Under the pieces are notes generated by a model, which was not told the origin of the DNA, ran no database searches, and saw nothing but the letters and a program-made list of their open reading frames with translations. Shown here piece by piece: positions 4,313 to 14,538 of a DNA stretch of 31,581 nucleotides. Numbering within the stretch: the first letter of the stretch is position 1; each line of letters begins with the position of its first letter. Made by a program: the position numbers and the translations under genes. Source of the DNA: a virus; UHGV virus genome UHGV-1546770, one strand, 5' to 3'.

Positions 4313-4562
4313 CTTCTTTCCGTTCTCCGTATGAGCAGAAATCGTTGTCCTCAGTCCAGTTAAATGACAGTCTCATAGGGCAAGGCGGCTTGTTATGGTA
4401 CTTGCACTCCCGACATCTGACCACTTCCACGGCATCCTTTTCCAATAGCAATGCCGCTTTTCCATAAACGGAATGCTCATATACTCCCGGTGTAAAATCA
4501 GCATCGTGAATCATTTTTAATGCCGTTGCTACCGTCCGTCTATCGGCATCAATCGGCCGCAT
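4296..4562 (-). CDS. hypothetical protein (88 aa)
   Basis: Intact ORF; CRECKYHNKPPCP motif; short overlap with neighbours. Confidence 0.55.
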   Translation of the reverse strand: MRPIDADRRTVATALKMIHDADFTPGVYEHSVYGKAALLLEKDAVEVVRCRECKYHNKPPCPMRLSFNWTEDNDFCSYGERKEGADNG

Positions 4563-4818
4563 CTATAATCTCCTCCAAACCTGCAATATGTTCAATCATC
4601 ATTTCTTTCGCAAACAATTCTCCTTTATGCAAGCATTCTCTCGCTTGAATAGATGCATCGACCAATTCATCAATAAGCTGCTTTAGGTTATTCGCATCAC
4701 TATACCCGTCATAATCGAAACCGATGTCCCATATAAATTGTAACCATTCATCTACACAATTTGGCTCACACATTTTACATCCTGTCTGTTCATCAATCCA
4801 ATATTTCATTTTATTCAC
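4549..4818 (-). CDS. hypothetical protein (89 aa)
   Basis: Intact ORF; CKMCEPNC motif. Confidence 0.55.
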   Translation of the reverse strand: MNKMKYWIDEQTGCKMCEPNCVDEWLQFIWDIGFDYDGYSDANNLKQLIDELVDASIQARECLHKGELFAKEMMIEHIAGLEEIIDAAD

Positions 4819-4834
4819 TCAAAATCCTTAGTTA

Positions 4835-5167
4835 TTATTTATCCTCTAACACCCAAATGTCACCGCGCTGCTCTACAATTTTATAATTCTCAACAACCTC
4901 GTTATAAGACACAGAATCATCAATAATACATTCGTATCGGTATTCACCGGTTTTAACAATACATGTTAAAATTCCACAAGTAACCATAATGGATAAACCA
5001 ATAATAAGAGAAGATGTAGTTGCCCAAACAGGCCCATCAAGGATCATAGACACAGCAAATACAATTAATCCAGTAACAAATATTATGAATGCCAATACTG
5101 ATACCCACGTGGGCAAACCAGTAACAGCCGTTTTATTTAATATAGTTATCCCTTCTACCATTCTCAT
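4835..5167 (-). CDS. hypothetical membrane protein (110 aa)
   Basis: Two hydrophobic stretches (VSVLAFIIFVTGLIVFAV, LIIGLSIMVTCGILTCIV) consistent with transmembrane helices. Confidence 0.6.
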   Translation of the reverse strand: MRMVEGITILNKTAVTGLPTWVSVLAFIIFVTGLIVFAVSMILDGPVWATTSSLIIGLSIMVTCGILTCIVKTGEYRYECIIDDSVSYNEVVENYKIVEQRGDIWVLEDK

Positions 5168-6410: not shown

Positions 6411-6534
6411 TTATCTTACGCCTCTTTCGTAAAAAATAGATACATATAAGCCAATCCTTATATTCATTTGACATTTGTTGATTGCTCCTTTATAAATTTG
6501 TTGCCTTAATGTACTATAATTTTATACTGTAGCC

Positions 6535-10040: not shown

Positions 10041-11051
10041 TCAGTCTCCTTTACCTTTTAAACTATTTATATATCTATCTAACTCTTCTTGTGTGATATA
10101 TCCTTTTTCAATTGCATCTTCCGCATACAACCAATGCAATGCCTCGCCTGTTTGTGGATGTTTATACGTATAATTTTGTTTACCTCTACAGCACTTTGTA
10201 ATAGAGCTTGGATCACATCCATATAAATTTTGTACTTCTTTTGCTCCCCAAAAAATTTGATTTAATTCTATACAATATATTCTTCTACATTTCCACCAAT
10301 TACTACCTTTACGAGAATCACTCATCTTTTTCTTTGCTTCTTCTGTGTGATGTTTCCCATACATTGGATGATTGCTTGGATTTATAAATCTTTCTTTTGC
10401 TTTTTCTGATAGATTTAATTTTTGTTCATCTGACAATTTTTTACCTAAACTGGGATGTTGTTTTCCTATCCATATATGTTTGCCTTTAGTTGTTGGATTT
10501 GCCCAATATAATTTATGTTTTTCATACCATTGTTTATATGTTTCTTCATCCATGCGTTCTTTTGGAGAAACTTTAAACTGTGGATTATTCTCGCCTACTA
10601 ATCCTGCTCTTCCATACATTGGATGATTATTTGGATCTGAAAGTCTTTCTTTTGCAGCTTTTGATATCTTTTTTCTTGTTTCTTTACTTGGAGTCCATCC
10701 TTGCGTTGTTCCTCCACCATAAACAAGATTATACCAATTGTTAGATTCAACAGCATTAAAGAAAACACTATAATTATATTCCATTTCATTTAATTCTTCT
10801 GCAGAATAAGCAATATCAATTACATTTCTTACAAAATTTTCTTTTCCATATTTGTCAATTGCTTGTTTAAATGCTGCACCACTACCAAGATATTCTTGCC
10901 AATTTCCATAGAATTTTCTTTGGCCTAAATATCTTTTGCCATCAATCAAATTCGTTGTGATATAAATAAATCCATATGGATCTTTTACTTCCGTATATGT
11001 TGTATCTTGTAGCCCATCAACGGAAGAATTCATTTCTTTTAATTCTTCCAT
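10041..11051 (-). CDS. GIY-YIG homing endonuclease with NUMOD3 repeats and NUMOD1-like HTH
   Basis: N-terminal YGFIYITTNLIDGKRYLGQ (GIY-YIG), repeated NHPMYG...K..S motifs, C-terminal ELNQIFWGAKEVQNLYGCDPSSITKCCRGK helix-turn-helix. Confidence 0.7.
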   Translation of the reverse strand: MEELKEMNSSVDGLQDTTYTEVKDPYGFIYITTNLIDGKRYLGQRKFYGNWQEYLGSGAAFKQAIDKYGKENFVRNVIDIAYSAEELNEMEYNYSVFFNAVESNNWYNLVYGGGTTQGWTPSKETRKKISKAAKERLSDPNNHPMYGRAGLVGENNPQFKVSPKERMDEETYKQWYEKHKLYWANPTTKGKHIWIGKQHPSLGKKLSDEQKLNLSEKAKERFINPSNHPMYGKHHTEEAKKKMSDSRKGSNWWKCRRIYCIELNQIFWGAKEVQNLYGCDPSSITKCCRGKQNYTYKHPQTGEALHWLYAEDAIEKGYITQEELDRYINSLKGKGD

Positions 11052-11124
11052 CTATTATCACTTCGCTGTCTATAATTTAGTATTGTCTAGGGAAGCTTTA
11101 ATTCTTCCCTAGACTTATGGATTC

Positions 11125-12201
11125 TTACCATGGCTCATCTTCGTCGTCAGATTCATCGTCGCCCCAATCATCATCCACATTGGATGTTGACTCTGCCTTA
11201 CCAGTGAAATCCTGTTCTGCTTTCTTTGATGCATTTACCTTCTTAATTGCCTCATCAATTGCCTTTTCAGTATATGTTTCTTTGTCAATAGTTGATGGCT
11301 TTGCACCTGTAATAATAAGTTCTCGATGAGTCGGTGCAAAAACTCTCTTATTGTCCATATCATTAGATTCGCCCCAGCAATCATCGTCTTCCTCATCATT
11401 CACGTCTTCAACATTATTAACAACATTGATGTGTCCATGAACCTGAATGGAATTATAAGGCTTTAGCCCACTACGCATCTGCTTTGCGAGTTTTGCATCT
11501 TCAATAATAAATTCAGCAGACTCAATAGAGTTATAATTCACAATCTTTGCATCTACCACAAATCGACCAGTTGGCTTGTCGTTTTCTCTTTCCTGATCAA
11601 TACCAACAAAAACAATTGTCTGCGTAAAATCATGAGCGGGAGCATAATCCTCCGCCTCAAAGTCAACATCATTCTGACATAGAGAAATTTGTGTTGGGAC
11701 AAACTTTGTGGTACGAGAGACTTCCCCATCTTTGTTAGTATAACTGCCAAATTCTAGATTTCCTTTAACAAAAACAGAATCACCATCCTGAAGATTCTCG
11801 CTAATGTATTCACATGCGTCATACTCAGTAAGCGTCTTGTTGTCGTTTCTTACCTTTCCGTTTTCGTCCTTGATCTTCTGAAGTCCAGTAAGCACACCAA
11901 TCATACGATAGCCTTCAGGAGCCTTCTTAATTCTGTCTTTCCATGCAATTGCCTTTGTATCAGTATTGCCAGTGTCTTTATCCTTCTTACTAAAATACAC
12001 CTTGTCACGCGGCATACCATTAAGCGTTGGGAAAATTGTCTTCTTGTCATCATACTCCACGCCAAAATTAATCATTCTGAACTCTTTGCCAGTTCTTGTC
12101 TGCTTTTCTACGTAGAAACTATCCTTTTCTACTCCGCTTACAATTCCTCTAACCTGAAAAGTTCCCTTGGTTTGTGGAAGTTCAAAAAGTTTGTTTGCCA
12201 T
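11125..12201 (-). CDS. putative ssDNA-binding protein (358 aa) with acidic C-terminal tail
   Basis: C-terminus DDDWGDDESDDEDEPW (acidic tail ending in an aromatic residue, as in SSB/gp2.5-type proteins); lies in the replication module. Confidence 0.4.
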   Translation of the reverse strand: MANKLFELPQTKGTFQVRGIVSGVEKDSFYVEKQTRTGKEFRMINFGVEYDDKKTIFPTLNGMPRDKVYFSKKDKDTGNTDTKAIAWKDRIKKAPEGYRMIGVLTGLQKIKDENGKVRNDNKTLTEYDACEYISENLQDGDSVFVKGNLEFGSYTNKDGEVSRTTKFVPTQISLCQNDVDFEAEDYAPAHDFTQTIVFVGIDQERENDKPTGRFVVDAKIVNYNSIESAEFIIEDAKLAKQMRSGLKPYNSIQVHGHINVVNNVEDVNDEEDDDCWGESNDMDNKRVFAPTHRELIITGAKPSTIDKETYTEKAIDEAIKKVNASKKAEQDFTGKAESTSNVDDDWGDDESDDEDEPW

Positions 12202-12253
12202 ATTTTATTAGTCTCCTTTTCCTATAATTTTGTATTGTTTAATAAAATAAAAA

Positions 12254-12463
12254 TTAATACTTATAATATCTTTCATCCATGACCGCATTATAATATGTGT
12301 ATTTGTCTAAAATGTCTTTCCCTATGTTCAACATATAATTTTCGTGCTCACAGCATGGACATCTCGCTTGTATATATAAATACTCAATGTAATTATTTTG
12401 TTCATCAACCTGAAAAATTGTTCCACATTTCTGGCATTGAACATTGACGCTCTTTGATTTCAT
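12254..12463 (-). CDS. hypothetical zinc-ribbon protein (69 aa)
   Basis: CQKCG...CPCCEHEN motifs; downstream of two consensus promoters. Confidence 0.5.
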   Translation of the reverse strand: MKSKSVNVQCQKCGTIFQVDEQNNYIEYLYIQARCPCCEHENYMLNIGKDILDKYTYYNAVMDERYYKY

Positions 12464-12532
12464 TCATCATTCATCCCCCTTTCTCAACAATTGAAAAGAC
12501 TATAATTTTATATTACATCTCATTACGATTGC

Positions 12533-12561
12533 ATTATACCATAACAATTGCGTCTTGTCAA
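12533..12561 (-). promoter_or_regulatory. sigma70-type promoter, exact consensus TTGACA-N17-TATAAT
   Basis: Minus strand TTGACA agacgcaattgttatgg TATAAT. Confidence 0.6.
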
Positions 12562-12735
12562 GTTTTTTATCGAAGATCGAAAAATTTTGTATTTCACTTT
12601 TACTTTATATTAATTCGCTGCTGATTATTGCGCAATTTCCATTTAACTCGATATTCGCAATTCCATTGTTCTTTTATTTTTTGTACCAATCATAACGTAT
12701 TGTGATTCTTACATTATAAATTTTTCGCTTATTTT

Positions 12736-12764
12736 ATTATACAGTACAAAATTATCATTGTCAA
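12736..12764 (-). promoter_or_regulatory. sigma70-type promoter, exact consensus TTGACA-N17-TATAAT
   Basis: Minus strand TTGACA atgataattttgtactg TATAAT, immediately downstream of the recombinase stop codon. Confidence 0.6.
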
Positions 12765-12770
12765 ATCTTA

Positions 12771-13745
12771 TTAAACCATATCATCCAAAATATTCGCGGC
12801 TTGCTGCTTTTTGTCTTTAGACATATTTGCATATCTCATAGTAGTAGCAATATTTTTATGATTAAGAACTGACGCACAAAGATAAATATCTCCAGTCTTT
12901 TCGTACAAATTAGTTGCACAAGAATGTCTCAACACATGTGGTGTAACATGCTTACTTGTCACATCCTTACTATATTTTTCTAGCATCACCCTAATGCCGT
13001 CTCTTGTAATTCTCTTTTTAAAGCTAGAAATAAACAAGGCATCTGTATTCGCCATGCTAAAATATTTGTTTCTATCCTGTAGCCACAATTCTAGCTGCTT
13101 CTTTACTCTATCGCCAAATAGAATATTACATGTTTTTCCTCTTTTTTCGATTACCTTAATAGTATTATTTTCGAAATCAATATCACCAATATCAATTTGC
13201 GTGATTGCAGATACACGCAACCCAGTAGTTAGTCCAAGCATAATAATGGCTAGATCCCTATTTTTCATCTTTTTGCTTGCAAGCTTATCAACATTTTCAA
13301 GAATCATTTGCATTTCTTTTTCTGTTAAATAAGCAACATCTGGTGTATCTTGCACTTTAGGACGTTCTGTTCTCTCCATTGGATTTTCTTTAATATAATC
13401 ATTTTCTTTAAGGAACCCAAAAAACGTATTCAATGCAGACCACTTTGTCGCACGAATACTATCACTTGTATTATAATGTCCATTGATAGTTTCTTTATTC
13501 TTCAATGCGGCAAAATATTTATTAATATCCAAAGGTGTTACCTTTTTATAAAAATCATTTGAGATTCTATTTTCATTAATAAATTCTGCAAATTCCTTCA
13601 CATATGCTACATATCTCTCAACTGTTGTATAAGATTTAGTTATACACATATAATAATAAAATTCAGAAAAAATTTTAGGAAGTCCTGTTAATTTTGCCTG
13701 CATCTTATTTGTAGCAACAATTTCCTTTTCCATTCTTCCTGTCAT
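12771..13745 (-). CDS. tyrosine recombinase / integrase (XerC/XerD-like)
   Basis: Catalytic-domain motifs TGLRVSA (Arg), HVLRHSCAT (His-x-x-Arg-His) and TMRYANM (Tyr) in the expected order. Confidence 0.85.
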   Translation of the reverse strand: MTGRMEKEIVATNKMQAKLTGLPKIFSEFYYYMCITKSYTTVERYVAYVKEFAEFINENRISNDFYKKVTPLDINKYFAALKNKETINGHYNTSDSIRATKWSALNTFFGFLKENDYIKENPMERTERPKVQDTPDVAYLTEKEMQMILENVDKLASKKMKNRDLAIIMLGLTTGLRVSAITQIDIGDIDFENNTIKVIEKRGKTCNILFGDRVKKQLELWLQDRNKYFSMANTDALFISSFKKRITRDGIRVMLEKYSKDVTSKHVTPHVLRHSCATNLYEKTGDIYLCASVLNHKNIATTMRYANMSKDKKQQAANILDDMV

Positions 13746-13747
13746 TT

Positions 13748-14230
13748 TTAACCCTCCTTAATTTTCTTTTTTCTCCATTTAACAAAAGTATATGTCGCCA
13801 ATGCCCAGATGAAAAGTCTTCCATTCAAAATTGCTGCAATGCCAATAATGAAAACATACCACATCCATCCAATAAGAAGGCAATCTGGCTTCTGCTTGTA
13901 GCAATCTTCTCCATCTTCTACCCAATGATAATATTCCTTATTATTTTTATATACTTTATTTCTATCGACAACAACGTCTCTTGTTTTTGGGGCAATAACA
14001 CTAACAATATTATTCGTAAAAGCATCAAGTGAAAACATAAAATCACATGCCGCGATATTGCTATGGACAAAACATGTATCTGATTTTTTATTGTATTTAA
14101 TAAATGTAATTTCAATTTCTGGGAAAAGTGCAACATCTTTCTTGATGAAATTTTTACATTTAAATTTTGATCCAGTGTAATATCTAGTTCCGTTATAGTC
14201 AAAGTAATCGCACATAACACCGTTGTTCAT
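13748..14230 (-). CDS. hypothetical membrane-anchored protein (160 aa)
   Basis: C-terminal hydrophobic helix WMWYVFIIGIAAILNGRLFIWALATYTF then basic tail; only 3 nt upstream of the recombinase gene. Confidence 0.55.
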   Translation of the reverse strand: MNNGVMCDYFDYNGTRYYTGSKFKCKNFIKKDVALFPEIEITFIKYNKKSDTCFVHSNIAACDFMFSLDAFTNNIVSVIAPKTRDVVVDRNKVYKNNKEYYHWVEDGEDCYKQKPDCLLIGWMWYVFIIGIAAILNGRLFIWALATYTFVKWRKKKIKEG

Positions 14231-14231
14231 A

Positions 14232-14477
14232 TTAAGACATTACCTCCTCAATAATATCAACTACTTCACTAAGCAAATCAATGCATTCTTCAAGATGTTC
14301 ACAACACTCTTCTGCCTTGCTATACCTGTCAGATCCTTGCAAATTCTCAGGCATATTATCTAGGCACTCCTGTTCTTCGTCATAAATATCTTGAATACGA
14401 CTATTAAGCTGTTCAATTTCTGTGGATAGGGTTTCTAGTTTTTTTCTGCGTTTATTATTCATAGAAAATACCTCCAT
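14232..14477 (-). CDS. hypothetical acidic coiled-coil protein (81 aa)
   Basis: Intact ORF, strongly acidic; downstream of consensus promoter at 14510-14538. Confidence 0.5.
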   Translation of the reverse strand: MEVFSMNNKRRKKLETLSTEIEQLNSRIQDIYDEEQECLDNMPENLQGSDRYSKAEECCEHLEECIDLLSEVVDIIEEVMS

Positions 14478-14509: not shown

Positions 14510-14538
14510 ATTATAACGCTATAATTTTGTTTTGTCAA
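14510..14538 (-). promoter_or_regulatory. sigma70-type promoter, exact consensus TTGACA-N17-TATAAT
   Basis: Minus strand TTGACA aaacaaaattatagcgt TATAAT; -35 overlaps the TGA stop of the methyltransferase gene. Confidence 0.6.

Follow-up and report, generated by a model that had tools for sequence, protein, structure and literature searches.

In a stretch of 31,581 nucleotides from the UHGV virus genome UHGV-1546770 (the whole of it is called the window in the following), we analysed a tyrosine recombinase gene on the minus strand (12771-13745) together with the AT-rich gap that follows it on this strand (12464-12770). The source phage belongs to a large group of uncultivated phages of ~130-171 kb that are known from gut metagenomes and form a clade distantly related to the Bacillus phage SPbeta. 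The explanation we favour, with moderate confidence, is that the recombinase is an accessory enzyme in the position of YopP, probably a resolvase or circulariser, and that the window derives from a natural deletion variant of this SPbeta-related gut phage clade, in which the repressor-like gene is missing. Read against the sequences of the relatives, the gap is a gene-loss scar and not regulatory non-coding DNA, and the recombinase most likely does not act on this stretch as the integrase. The features that this explanation draws on are given below, L001 being a related locus from the survey:

12771-13745, minus strand: Xer-like tyrosine recombinase of 324 amino acids, with a core-binding and a catalytic domain, without an arm-binding domain, catalytic residues present
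12736-12764, minus strand: P1, exact consensus promoter, which drives the MrpR/SroF-like gene in relatives and is orphaned here
12708-12719, no strand: main deletion junction, where the homology to L001 ends at 12719 (L001 7027) and begins again at 12712 (L001 8157)
12587-12712, minus strand: fragmented pseudogene remnant (s83) of a small open reading frame (ORF) of 83 amino acids, with more internal deletions and in-frame stops
12533-12561, minus strand: P2, exact consensus promoter with a TG extension, conserved in relatives, which drives the zinc-ribbon ORF of 69 amino acids and the replication genes

The preliminary description of this DNA, made from the sequence alone, had pointed to about 300 bp of AT-rich non-coding DNA with two exact promoters beside the recombinase, and this description is accurate: the gap measures 307 bp, has a GC content of 26.7% (36.3% for the window), has no minus-strand ORF left and holds two exact TTGACA-17-TATAAT sites on the minus strand (P1, 12764-12736; P2, 12561-12533). 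In the window as a whole, the coding strand carries all six such exact sites, while shuffling predicts 0.01. What this stretch once contained becomes apparent from the relatives. Compared with L001, the window lacks ~1.13 kb (L001 7028-8156): the mrpR-like gene in its entirety, the intergenic DNA that follows it and the 5' portion of the small ORF. All ten closest relatives (10/10) have 1256 bp extra between window positions 12719 and 12671. The L001 arrangement is a 306-amino-acid MrpR-like gene, which begins 72 nt past the recombinase stop codon, directly behind P1, and is followed by the ORF of 83 amino acids. A gapped alignment demonstrates that the window retains P1, fragments of s83 (12712-12587) and the intergenic region with P2; a 109-nt aligned block including the 3' part of the s83 remnant is 77% identical to L001. 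The deletion is recent, since the recombinase gene differs from that of L001 at only 11 of its 975 nt. An assembly artefact is an unlikely source of the deleted allele, which is found in two database records, an ENA scaffold (indexed for three samples) and an NCBI contig.

A second loss of the same two genes was observed in the locus L024, from which 1194 bp (L023 9562-10755) have been cleanly removed, with a microhomology of 5 nt, while its recombinase protein is identical to that of L023. This deletion takes the repressor-like gene from codon 26 on and most of the small ORF, leaving the first 26 codons in place. As the end points differ between the window and L024, the two losses are independent of each other and not site-specific; both are recent.

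The lost gene can be characterised by its intact counterparts. The 306-amino-acid protein matches the Pfam domain MrpR_N_CB (PF22822; 7.8e-11, 42.9 bits) above the cut-off of 27 bits and PF22823 (23.6 bits) below the same cut-off, and further matches are phrog_5830 (6e-35), PDB entry 9rd5 (3.8e-13) and the SPbeta MrpR structure 8a0a (5e-9). The entry 9rd5 was deposited as a core-binding-domain protein, which we take to be phi3T SroF. Aligning 20 MrpR-like members of the clade with the phi3T and Geobacillus virus E3 proteins revealed that the MrpR-like proteins are missing the Arg-I and HxxR positions of tyrosine recombinases. By analogy with SPbeta, we infer that the lost gene would have been the lysogeny repressor of the gut clade.

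The pairing of recombinase and MrpR-like gene is a property of the whole clade. At E<=1e-10, 1231 recombinase homologues were found, of which the best 120 clusters are of ~324 amino acids and have a longest contig of 171 kb at most. We collected ~80 related loci from IMG/VR and metagenome scans, many of them on contigs of 130-171 kb from human gut, other gut and rumen, with ~20-31 kb visible per genome of ~150 kb (about a fifth), and looked in each of them for counterparts of the recombinase, the membrane protein, the MrpR-like protein, the small ORF, the zinc-ribbon protein and YorF. Enough downstream sequence to judge the gene order was present in ~66 of the ~80 loci, whose recombinases are 43-99% identical to the one in the window. 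With the exceptions of the window lineage and L024, an MrpR-like gene (304-314 amino acids) follows the recombinase on the same strand in all of these, accompanied there by the small ORF; the L023 and L090 clade has a gene for a membrane protein between the two. The position of the recombinase varies from contig to contig, as in circularly permuted assemblies. Among annotated phages, matches at the DNA level were limited to Geobacillus virus E3 and lie under the YorF-like gene. The best plasmid matches to the recombinase are XerC genes, only ~30% identical, and its distant relatives with 33% identity (L013, L014, MT835478) have no MrpR-like neighbour. Bacillus phage FADO (L123, NC_073050.1), isolated as a phage, has the order MrpR-like gene, small ORFs, YorF, YorG and helicase without a recombinase, and nearly the same element, with the same order and likewise without a recombinase, is on record as a 161.9-kb circular 'plasmid' from B. 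amyloliquefaciens CQN-2 (L124, NZ_CP076118.1), a pair which suggests an episomal state for such phages.

Turning to the recombinase, the earlier recognition of a tyrosine recombinase amid the gene cluster holds: Pfam Phage_integrase (PF00589) matches residues 139-310 (5.7e-35, 121.1 bits against a cut-off of 27.1). A weak match to a SAM-like core-binding N-domain (Pfam SAM_4) covers residues 36-116, and the XerA model alignment begins at residue 31, so the N-terminus is the core-binding domain itself and an arm-binding domain is absent. The top NCBIfam models are XerA, XerC and XerD (151-166 bits), yet the protein stays below all the curated Xer equivalog cut-offs (XerA 166.2 against 220, XerC 165 against 335, XerD 150.9 against 330, XerS 134 against 267). 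Its closest solved structures are XerA (5hxy), XerD (1a0p) and XerH, and its RxxS, HxxR, H and Y align with the catalytic residues of XerD and XerA. The catalytic positions are R177 (GLRVS), K201 in the beta-hairpin, H270 and R273 (HVLRH), H296 and Y305 (MRY); all six are unchanged in 40 of 40 homologues, which are 50-87% identical to the window protein. From its sequence, it looks like a simple two-domain Xer-like enzyme that is apparently catalytically active.

Upstream of the recombinase, three further features complete its operon:

13748-14230, minus strand: protein of 160 amino acids with two C-terminal transmembrane helices and without a family match, upstream of the recombinase
14232-14477, minus strand: ORF of 81 amino acids, phrog_4068 (function unknown), which opens the recombinase operon
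14538-14510, minus strand: P3, exact sigma-70 consensus promoter at the start of the operon that comprises the 81-amino-acid ORF, the membrane protein and the recombinase

The long ORFs of this region are all on the minus strand, as are nearly all those of the window. The neighbouring membrane-protein gene had been noted before and does encode two hydrophobic helices, although the spacing has to be corrected: 2 nt, not 3, separate its stop codon from the ATG of the recombinase. Most clades have a homologue of the 160-amino-acid protein (25-98% identity) adjoining the recombinase; the L023 clade has a similarly built protein after the recombinase instead.

Combining these data, we propose the following course of events. 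P3, a promoter of the host-type consensus, would transcribe the small ORF, the membrane protein and the recombinase together. The ancestral layout continued with a promoter region of 60-130 nt (P1), an MrpR/SroF (YopR)-like gene and a small ORF, an arrangement that corresponds to yopP-(yopQ)-yopR of the SPbeta 'sro' operon. Illegitimate recombination then removed ~1.1 kb, which took away the repressor-like gene and the greater part of the small ORF, leaving P1, ORF debris and P2, which together resemble an AT-rich non-coding stretch with two promoters. The deletion variant would be unable to repress and hence effectively lytic, if the behaviour of SPbeta yopR mutants may be transferred. The recombinase itself may need no arm sites and act on a short core site alone, so as to resolve multimers of the replicating or extrachromosomal phage genome, or to circularise it, in the manner of Cre and Xer enzymes; this role, too, is an analogy.

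Several points speak against this proposal and should be kept in mind. The correspondence between the recombinase and YopP is one of position and not of demonstrated orthology, because the identity is only 23-24%, no more than between any two tyrosine recombinases, and gene order alone argues for orthology. Neither a recombination site nor a recombination product was found for the clade of the window, and the resolvase role is derived by exclusion and analogy; dimer resolution, one of the functions proposed earlier, would agree with the clustering among Xer-type enzymes and with a simple, conserved protein that occurs on phage-sized contigs only. Given the fraction of each genome that was visible, a separate integrase or partition system may lie outside the view. 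The missing integrated copies may stem from unsampled hosts or from assemblies breaking at prophage ends. The presence of an MrpR-like gene need not mean classical lysogeny either, considering that FADO was isolated as a phage and has a near-identical plasmid. Finally, the intactness of the recombinase says little about a function without the repressor, the deletion being recent.

Two kinds of repeated sequence near the recombinase have to be described before other explanations can be weighed. One is a recurrent, strand-specific motif, (A)ACA-ATACAAAATTATAG, also given as the ACAATACAAAATTATAG motif, with 15 sites at up to two mismatches (<=2) in the window, all on the coding strand, against 1.15 expected; at <=3 mismatches, 25 sites lie on the coding strand and four on the opposite one. 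The sites (on the minus strand, for example, 12222-12235, 12500-12513, 14519-14532, 11070-11083, 6514-6527 and 2466-2479) precede start codons by 10-40 nt or lie within the spacers of consensus promoters, as in P3, whose spacer contains it as AAACAAAATTATAG. The motif could be a phage-specific promoter, a 5' untranslated region (5'-UTR) element or an operator. As an operator of MrpR it is disfavoured: it is kept in all sister clades whatever the MrpR type, although the MrpR proteins are only 30-50% identical, and a phage-specific promoter or 5'-UTR element fits better. In the spacer of P1 (12736-12764), the motif is turned around and reads GTACAAAATTAT on the plus strand; if it were a promoter there, it would fire antisense into the recombinase gene. 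The spacer and -10 of P1 also form one arm of a 27-nt inverted repeat (12224-12250 / 12729-12755, 93%), which brackets the scar and the zinc-ribbon ORF; the second arm appears among the features downstream of the gap:

12254-12463, minus strand: zinc-ribbon ORF (CxxC...CxxC) of 69 amino acids, conserved downstream partner in nearly all clades
12222-12250, minus strand: perfect copy of the motif ATACAAAATTATAG, AT-rich upstream; second arm of the inverted repeat, just upstream of the YorF-like gene
11125-12201, minus strand: YorF-family protein resembling single-stranded DNA-binding proteins, first gene of the SPbeta-type replication block

This replication block consists of YorF, a GIY-YIG endonuclease, AAA_24, a YorH-like protein and a DnaB-like helicase. 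Between the zinc-ribbon ORF and the YorF-like gene, a 319-amino-acid GIY-YIG homing-endonuclease gene is present in some loci (L003 8752-9711, also L007, L034, L037, L089 and L110) and absent from others, its place corresponding to window 12206-12236; it is a paralogue of the GIY-YIG gene of the window at 10041-11051.

The other repeated sequence is a dyad with arms of 13-17 nt and a 6-nt spacer, which lies after the recombinase stop codon in L092 (10980-11020), L107, L105, L039 and L053, its spacer being the -35 hexamer of the mrpR-like promoter. No such dyad was found near the recombinase in the window or L001, and the clade of the window lacks it. Searching for dif/lox-like palindromes within 6 kb on each side of the recombinase in these two revealed none in the recombinase-mrpR intergenic region; most palindromes near the recombinase are GC-rich, terminator-like hairpins at gene ends. 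Geometry and placement of the dyads are those of the dif/lox site in single-Xer systems, but they fit an operator equally. We also observed that recombinase and MrpR-like alleles are shuffled among genomes (L102, L110 and L119 compared with L001; L009 and L010 compared with L031). The recombinase of L102, for example, is 47% identical to that of the window, while its MrpR-like gene and P1 are ~99% identical to those of L001, and exchange has taken place either at the 3' end of the recombinase gene or at the P1 -35 hexamer. By inspection of the window-type clades, the sequence type of P1 appears to follow the MrpR allele, not the recombinase allele.

An obvious alternative is that the recombinase is the phage integrase after all, its short-core phage attachment site (attP) lying in another place, such as the promoter region that directly follows its stop codon or a more distant position, and its host being absent from the databases. 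In relatives, the gene next door is homologous to a lysogeny repressor, which would suit an integrase, several sister clades have the dyad directly past the recombinase stop codon, and SPbeta-like phages are known to swap integration cassettes, tyrosine types included (bioRxiv 10.1101/2021.11.22.469490). We nevertheless regard it as unlikely, if worth a serious hearing. The enzyme has no arm-binding domain, the dyad is missing from the clade of the window itself, the type of P1 appears to be tied to the other gene of the pair (see above), and the SPbeta gene at the corresponding position is not the integrase. No integrated copy was found in 185,579 GTDB species genomes, where the best recombinase match is 33% identical, and no contig among the best 120 homologue clusters exceeds 171 kb. 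Nor was a host junction seen among the ~80 related loci, which have phage genes on both sides; the sole exception, L099 (OQVT01010656.1), was considered as a phage-host junction inside the mrpR-like gene and rejected as an assembly chimera of three parts, with a GC-rich head (1-887), a phage recombinase in the middle and a bacterial tail of CorC/CBS type (4458-5107). The specific form of this idea put forward in the preliminary description, an attP within the gap, has to be given up: the gap is a deletion scar, relatives have two coding genes there, and the best match of 12464-12770 to the tRNA genes of the window is 10 nt long (E = 0.29), which is chance level and not a tRNA-like core. The recombinase groups among Xer-type enzymes and no att-like core was found in the gap, the combination that the preliminary description had named as speaking against an integrase with attP there. 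As had been stated before, no tRNA fragment adjoins the recombinase; the seven tRNA genes of the window are arrayed on the coding strand at 2-1290, several of them long, and one of 91 nt (482-572), called Tyr with anticodon ATA, is unusual.

The inverted repeat would lend itself to a DNA invertase, another function suggested earlier, flipping the segment between 12224-12250 and 12729-12755 and so switching the expression of the repressor-like gene in relatives. Its score of 21 exceeds the shuffle maximum of 11, its arms are 93% complementary, one of them overlaps the promoter of the repressor-like gene, and the recombinase gives weak matches to FimB/E-type NCBIfam models (59-77 bits against cut-offs of 221-222). 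Yet none of the ~66 judged loci is inverted, and the repeat, significant in the subclade of the window, fades to chance level in most sister clades despite the conserved recombinase; its arms are copies of the recurrent motif, which all clades possess and of which the coding strand of the window has ~25 sites, and they are without the 6-8-bp spacer architecture of a crossover site. The inverton was rejected on these grounds, and we consider an invertase function very improbable. Somewhat less remote, although still improbable, is a recombinase that mainly serves as DNA-binding regulator or co-repressor of the adjacent promoter, as its degenerate neighbour would, strand exchange being incidental: it lies immediately next to the promoter from which the repressor-like gene is read, several clades have dyads over the -35 hexamer of this promoter, and integrases repressing their own promoters are documented (cited in PMC10516654). 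Binding alone, however, would not need six catalytic residues, which are invariant over 50% divergence here and have been lost in the adjacent MrpR-like proteins, and the promoter type again appears to track the MrpR allele. The scar itself could be turned around by assuming that the short version is ancestral, that relatives gained a 1.2-kb block and that the gap is regulatory intergenic DNA in its own right. Gene cassettes are indeed mobile here, as the GIY-YIG endonuclease gene present or absent between neighbouring genes illustrates, but the recombinase/MrpR-like pair is found clade-wide, down to 43% recombinase identity, pieces of the stop-interrupted small ORF are still recognisable in the window, and L024 keeps the first 26 codons of the repressor-like gene, which makes an insertion hardly credible. 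A more speculative idea, to which we give little weight, is that recombinase and dyad form a module like Cre/loxP or XerS/difSL, which would resolve or circularise a plasmid-like prophage of ~150 kb and at the same time gate repressor transcription by occupancy of the site. Were this true, replicon maintenance would be physically coupled to the lysis-lysogeny switch, and lytic escape variants would arise in the gut through recurrent repressor loss of the kind that the window represents.

On the reading we favour, a YopP-position recombinase next to a gene-loss scar, annotating this locus as 'integrase plus attP' would be a mis-annotation, as the apparent regulatory DNA is what remains of lost genes. 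The pairing of an active tyrosine recombinase with an integrase-fold repressor was previously known from SPbeta-like phages of Bacillus and relatives and is now extended to a very large clade of uncultivated gut-metagenome phages. Two independent natural deletions of the same two genes suggest, by analogy with the SPbeta mutants, that repressor-less variants may repeatedly emerge in the wild. That the two genes are so strictly paired throughout a very large clade of gut phages, and that the repressor-like one has repeatedly been lost in nature, deserves to be followed up, and a clade with shuffled recombinase and repressor alleles should be good material for approaching the function of the YopP-position recombinase.

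Among known systems, the single-recombinase systems XerA/dif, XerS/difSL, XerH/difH and Cre/loxP (phage P1) resemble the one described here in domain layout, size, catalytic residues and the lack of an arm-binding domain. The sites difSL, difH and loxP adjoin their recombinase genes. Some sister clades similarly have a gene-adjacent dyad with a 6-nt spacer, but the clade of the window yielded no dif- or lox-like site, and the sister dyads overlap a -35 hexamer. Lambda-type integrases differ by their N-terminal arm-binding domain, absent from the recombinase, and FimB/E-type invertases are matched only at the low scores given above. MrpR/SroF, a catalytically dead protein with an integrase fold, is the master lysogeny repressor of SPbeta and phi3T, binding as a monomer to long asymmetric boxes (PMC8612738; PMC10516654; bioRxiv 10.1101/2025.11.27.690993), and damage to yopR leads to clear plaques and no lysogens (PMC8612738). 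The relatives' gene is like it in having the MrpR N-domain above cut-off and a similar length and in the same loss of Arg-I and HxxR (PMC10516654), but unlike it in sequence (23-26% identity), so a repressor role in the gut clade would be one by analogy. The downstream small ORF of the clade, which is predicted to fold as a PH-like beta-sandwich, differs from the YopT/Sar antirepressor.

The closest parallel in position is the 'sro' operon of phi3T and SPbeta (yopM-yopR), in which yopP (XerC-like), yopQ (ParB-like) and yopR (MrpR/SroF) follow each other (PMC10516654; PMC8612738). The gene yopP is a core SPbeta gene, reportedly transcribed in lysogens, and the cited SPbeta literature assigns no function to YopP, integration being carried out by SprA or other exchangeable cassettes, including tyrosine types (PMC10516654; bioRxiv 10.1101/2021.11.22.469490). 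While phi3T and Geobacillus virus E3 both have the order XerC-like, ParB-like and MrpR-like gene, the gut clade is without a ParB-like YopQ and has either nothing or, in the L023 clade, a membrane protein gene between the pair; moreover, no arbitrium genes were seen near the window recombinase, which, unlike YopP, is co-transcribed with a membrane protein and has had its repressor-like partner deleted. The phi3T YopP and E3 gp148 proteins reach 65-68 bits on the XerA model, against 166-193 across the gut clade, and the window recombinase matches them with E = 2e-5 to 2e-7 at the low identity discussed above; XerA, XerC and XerD rank highest for all three proteins, but this is a generic result. 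Despite these differences, YopP, E3 gp148 and the recombinases of the gut clade are all Xer-like two-domain enzymes with an intact active site, encoded upstream of a same-strand gene of MrpR/SroF type in a large phage with YorF, YorG, YorH and helicase. Taken alone, the recombinase is ordinary; seen in this setting, it is a further YopP-position Xer-like recombinase of SPbeta-type phages.

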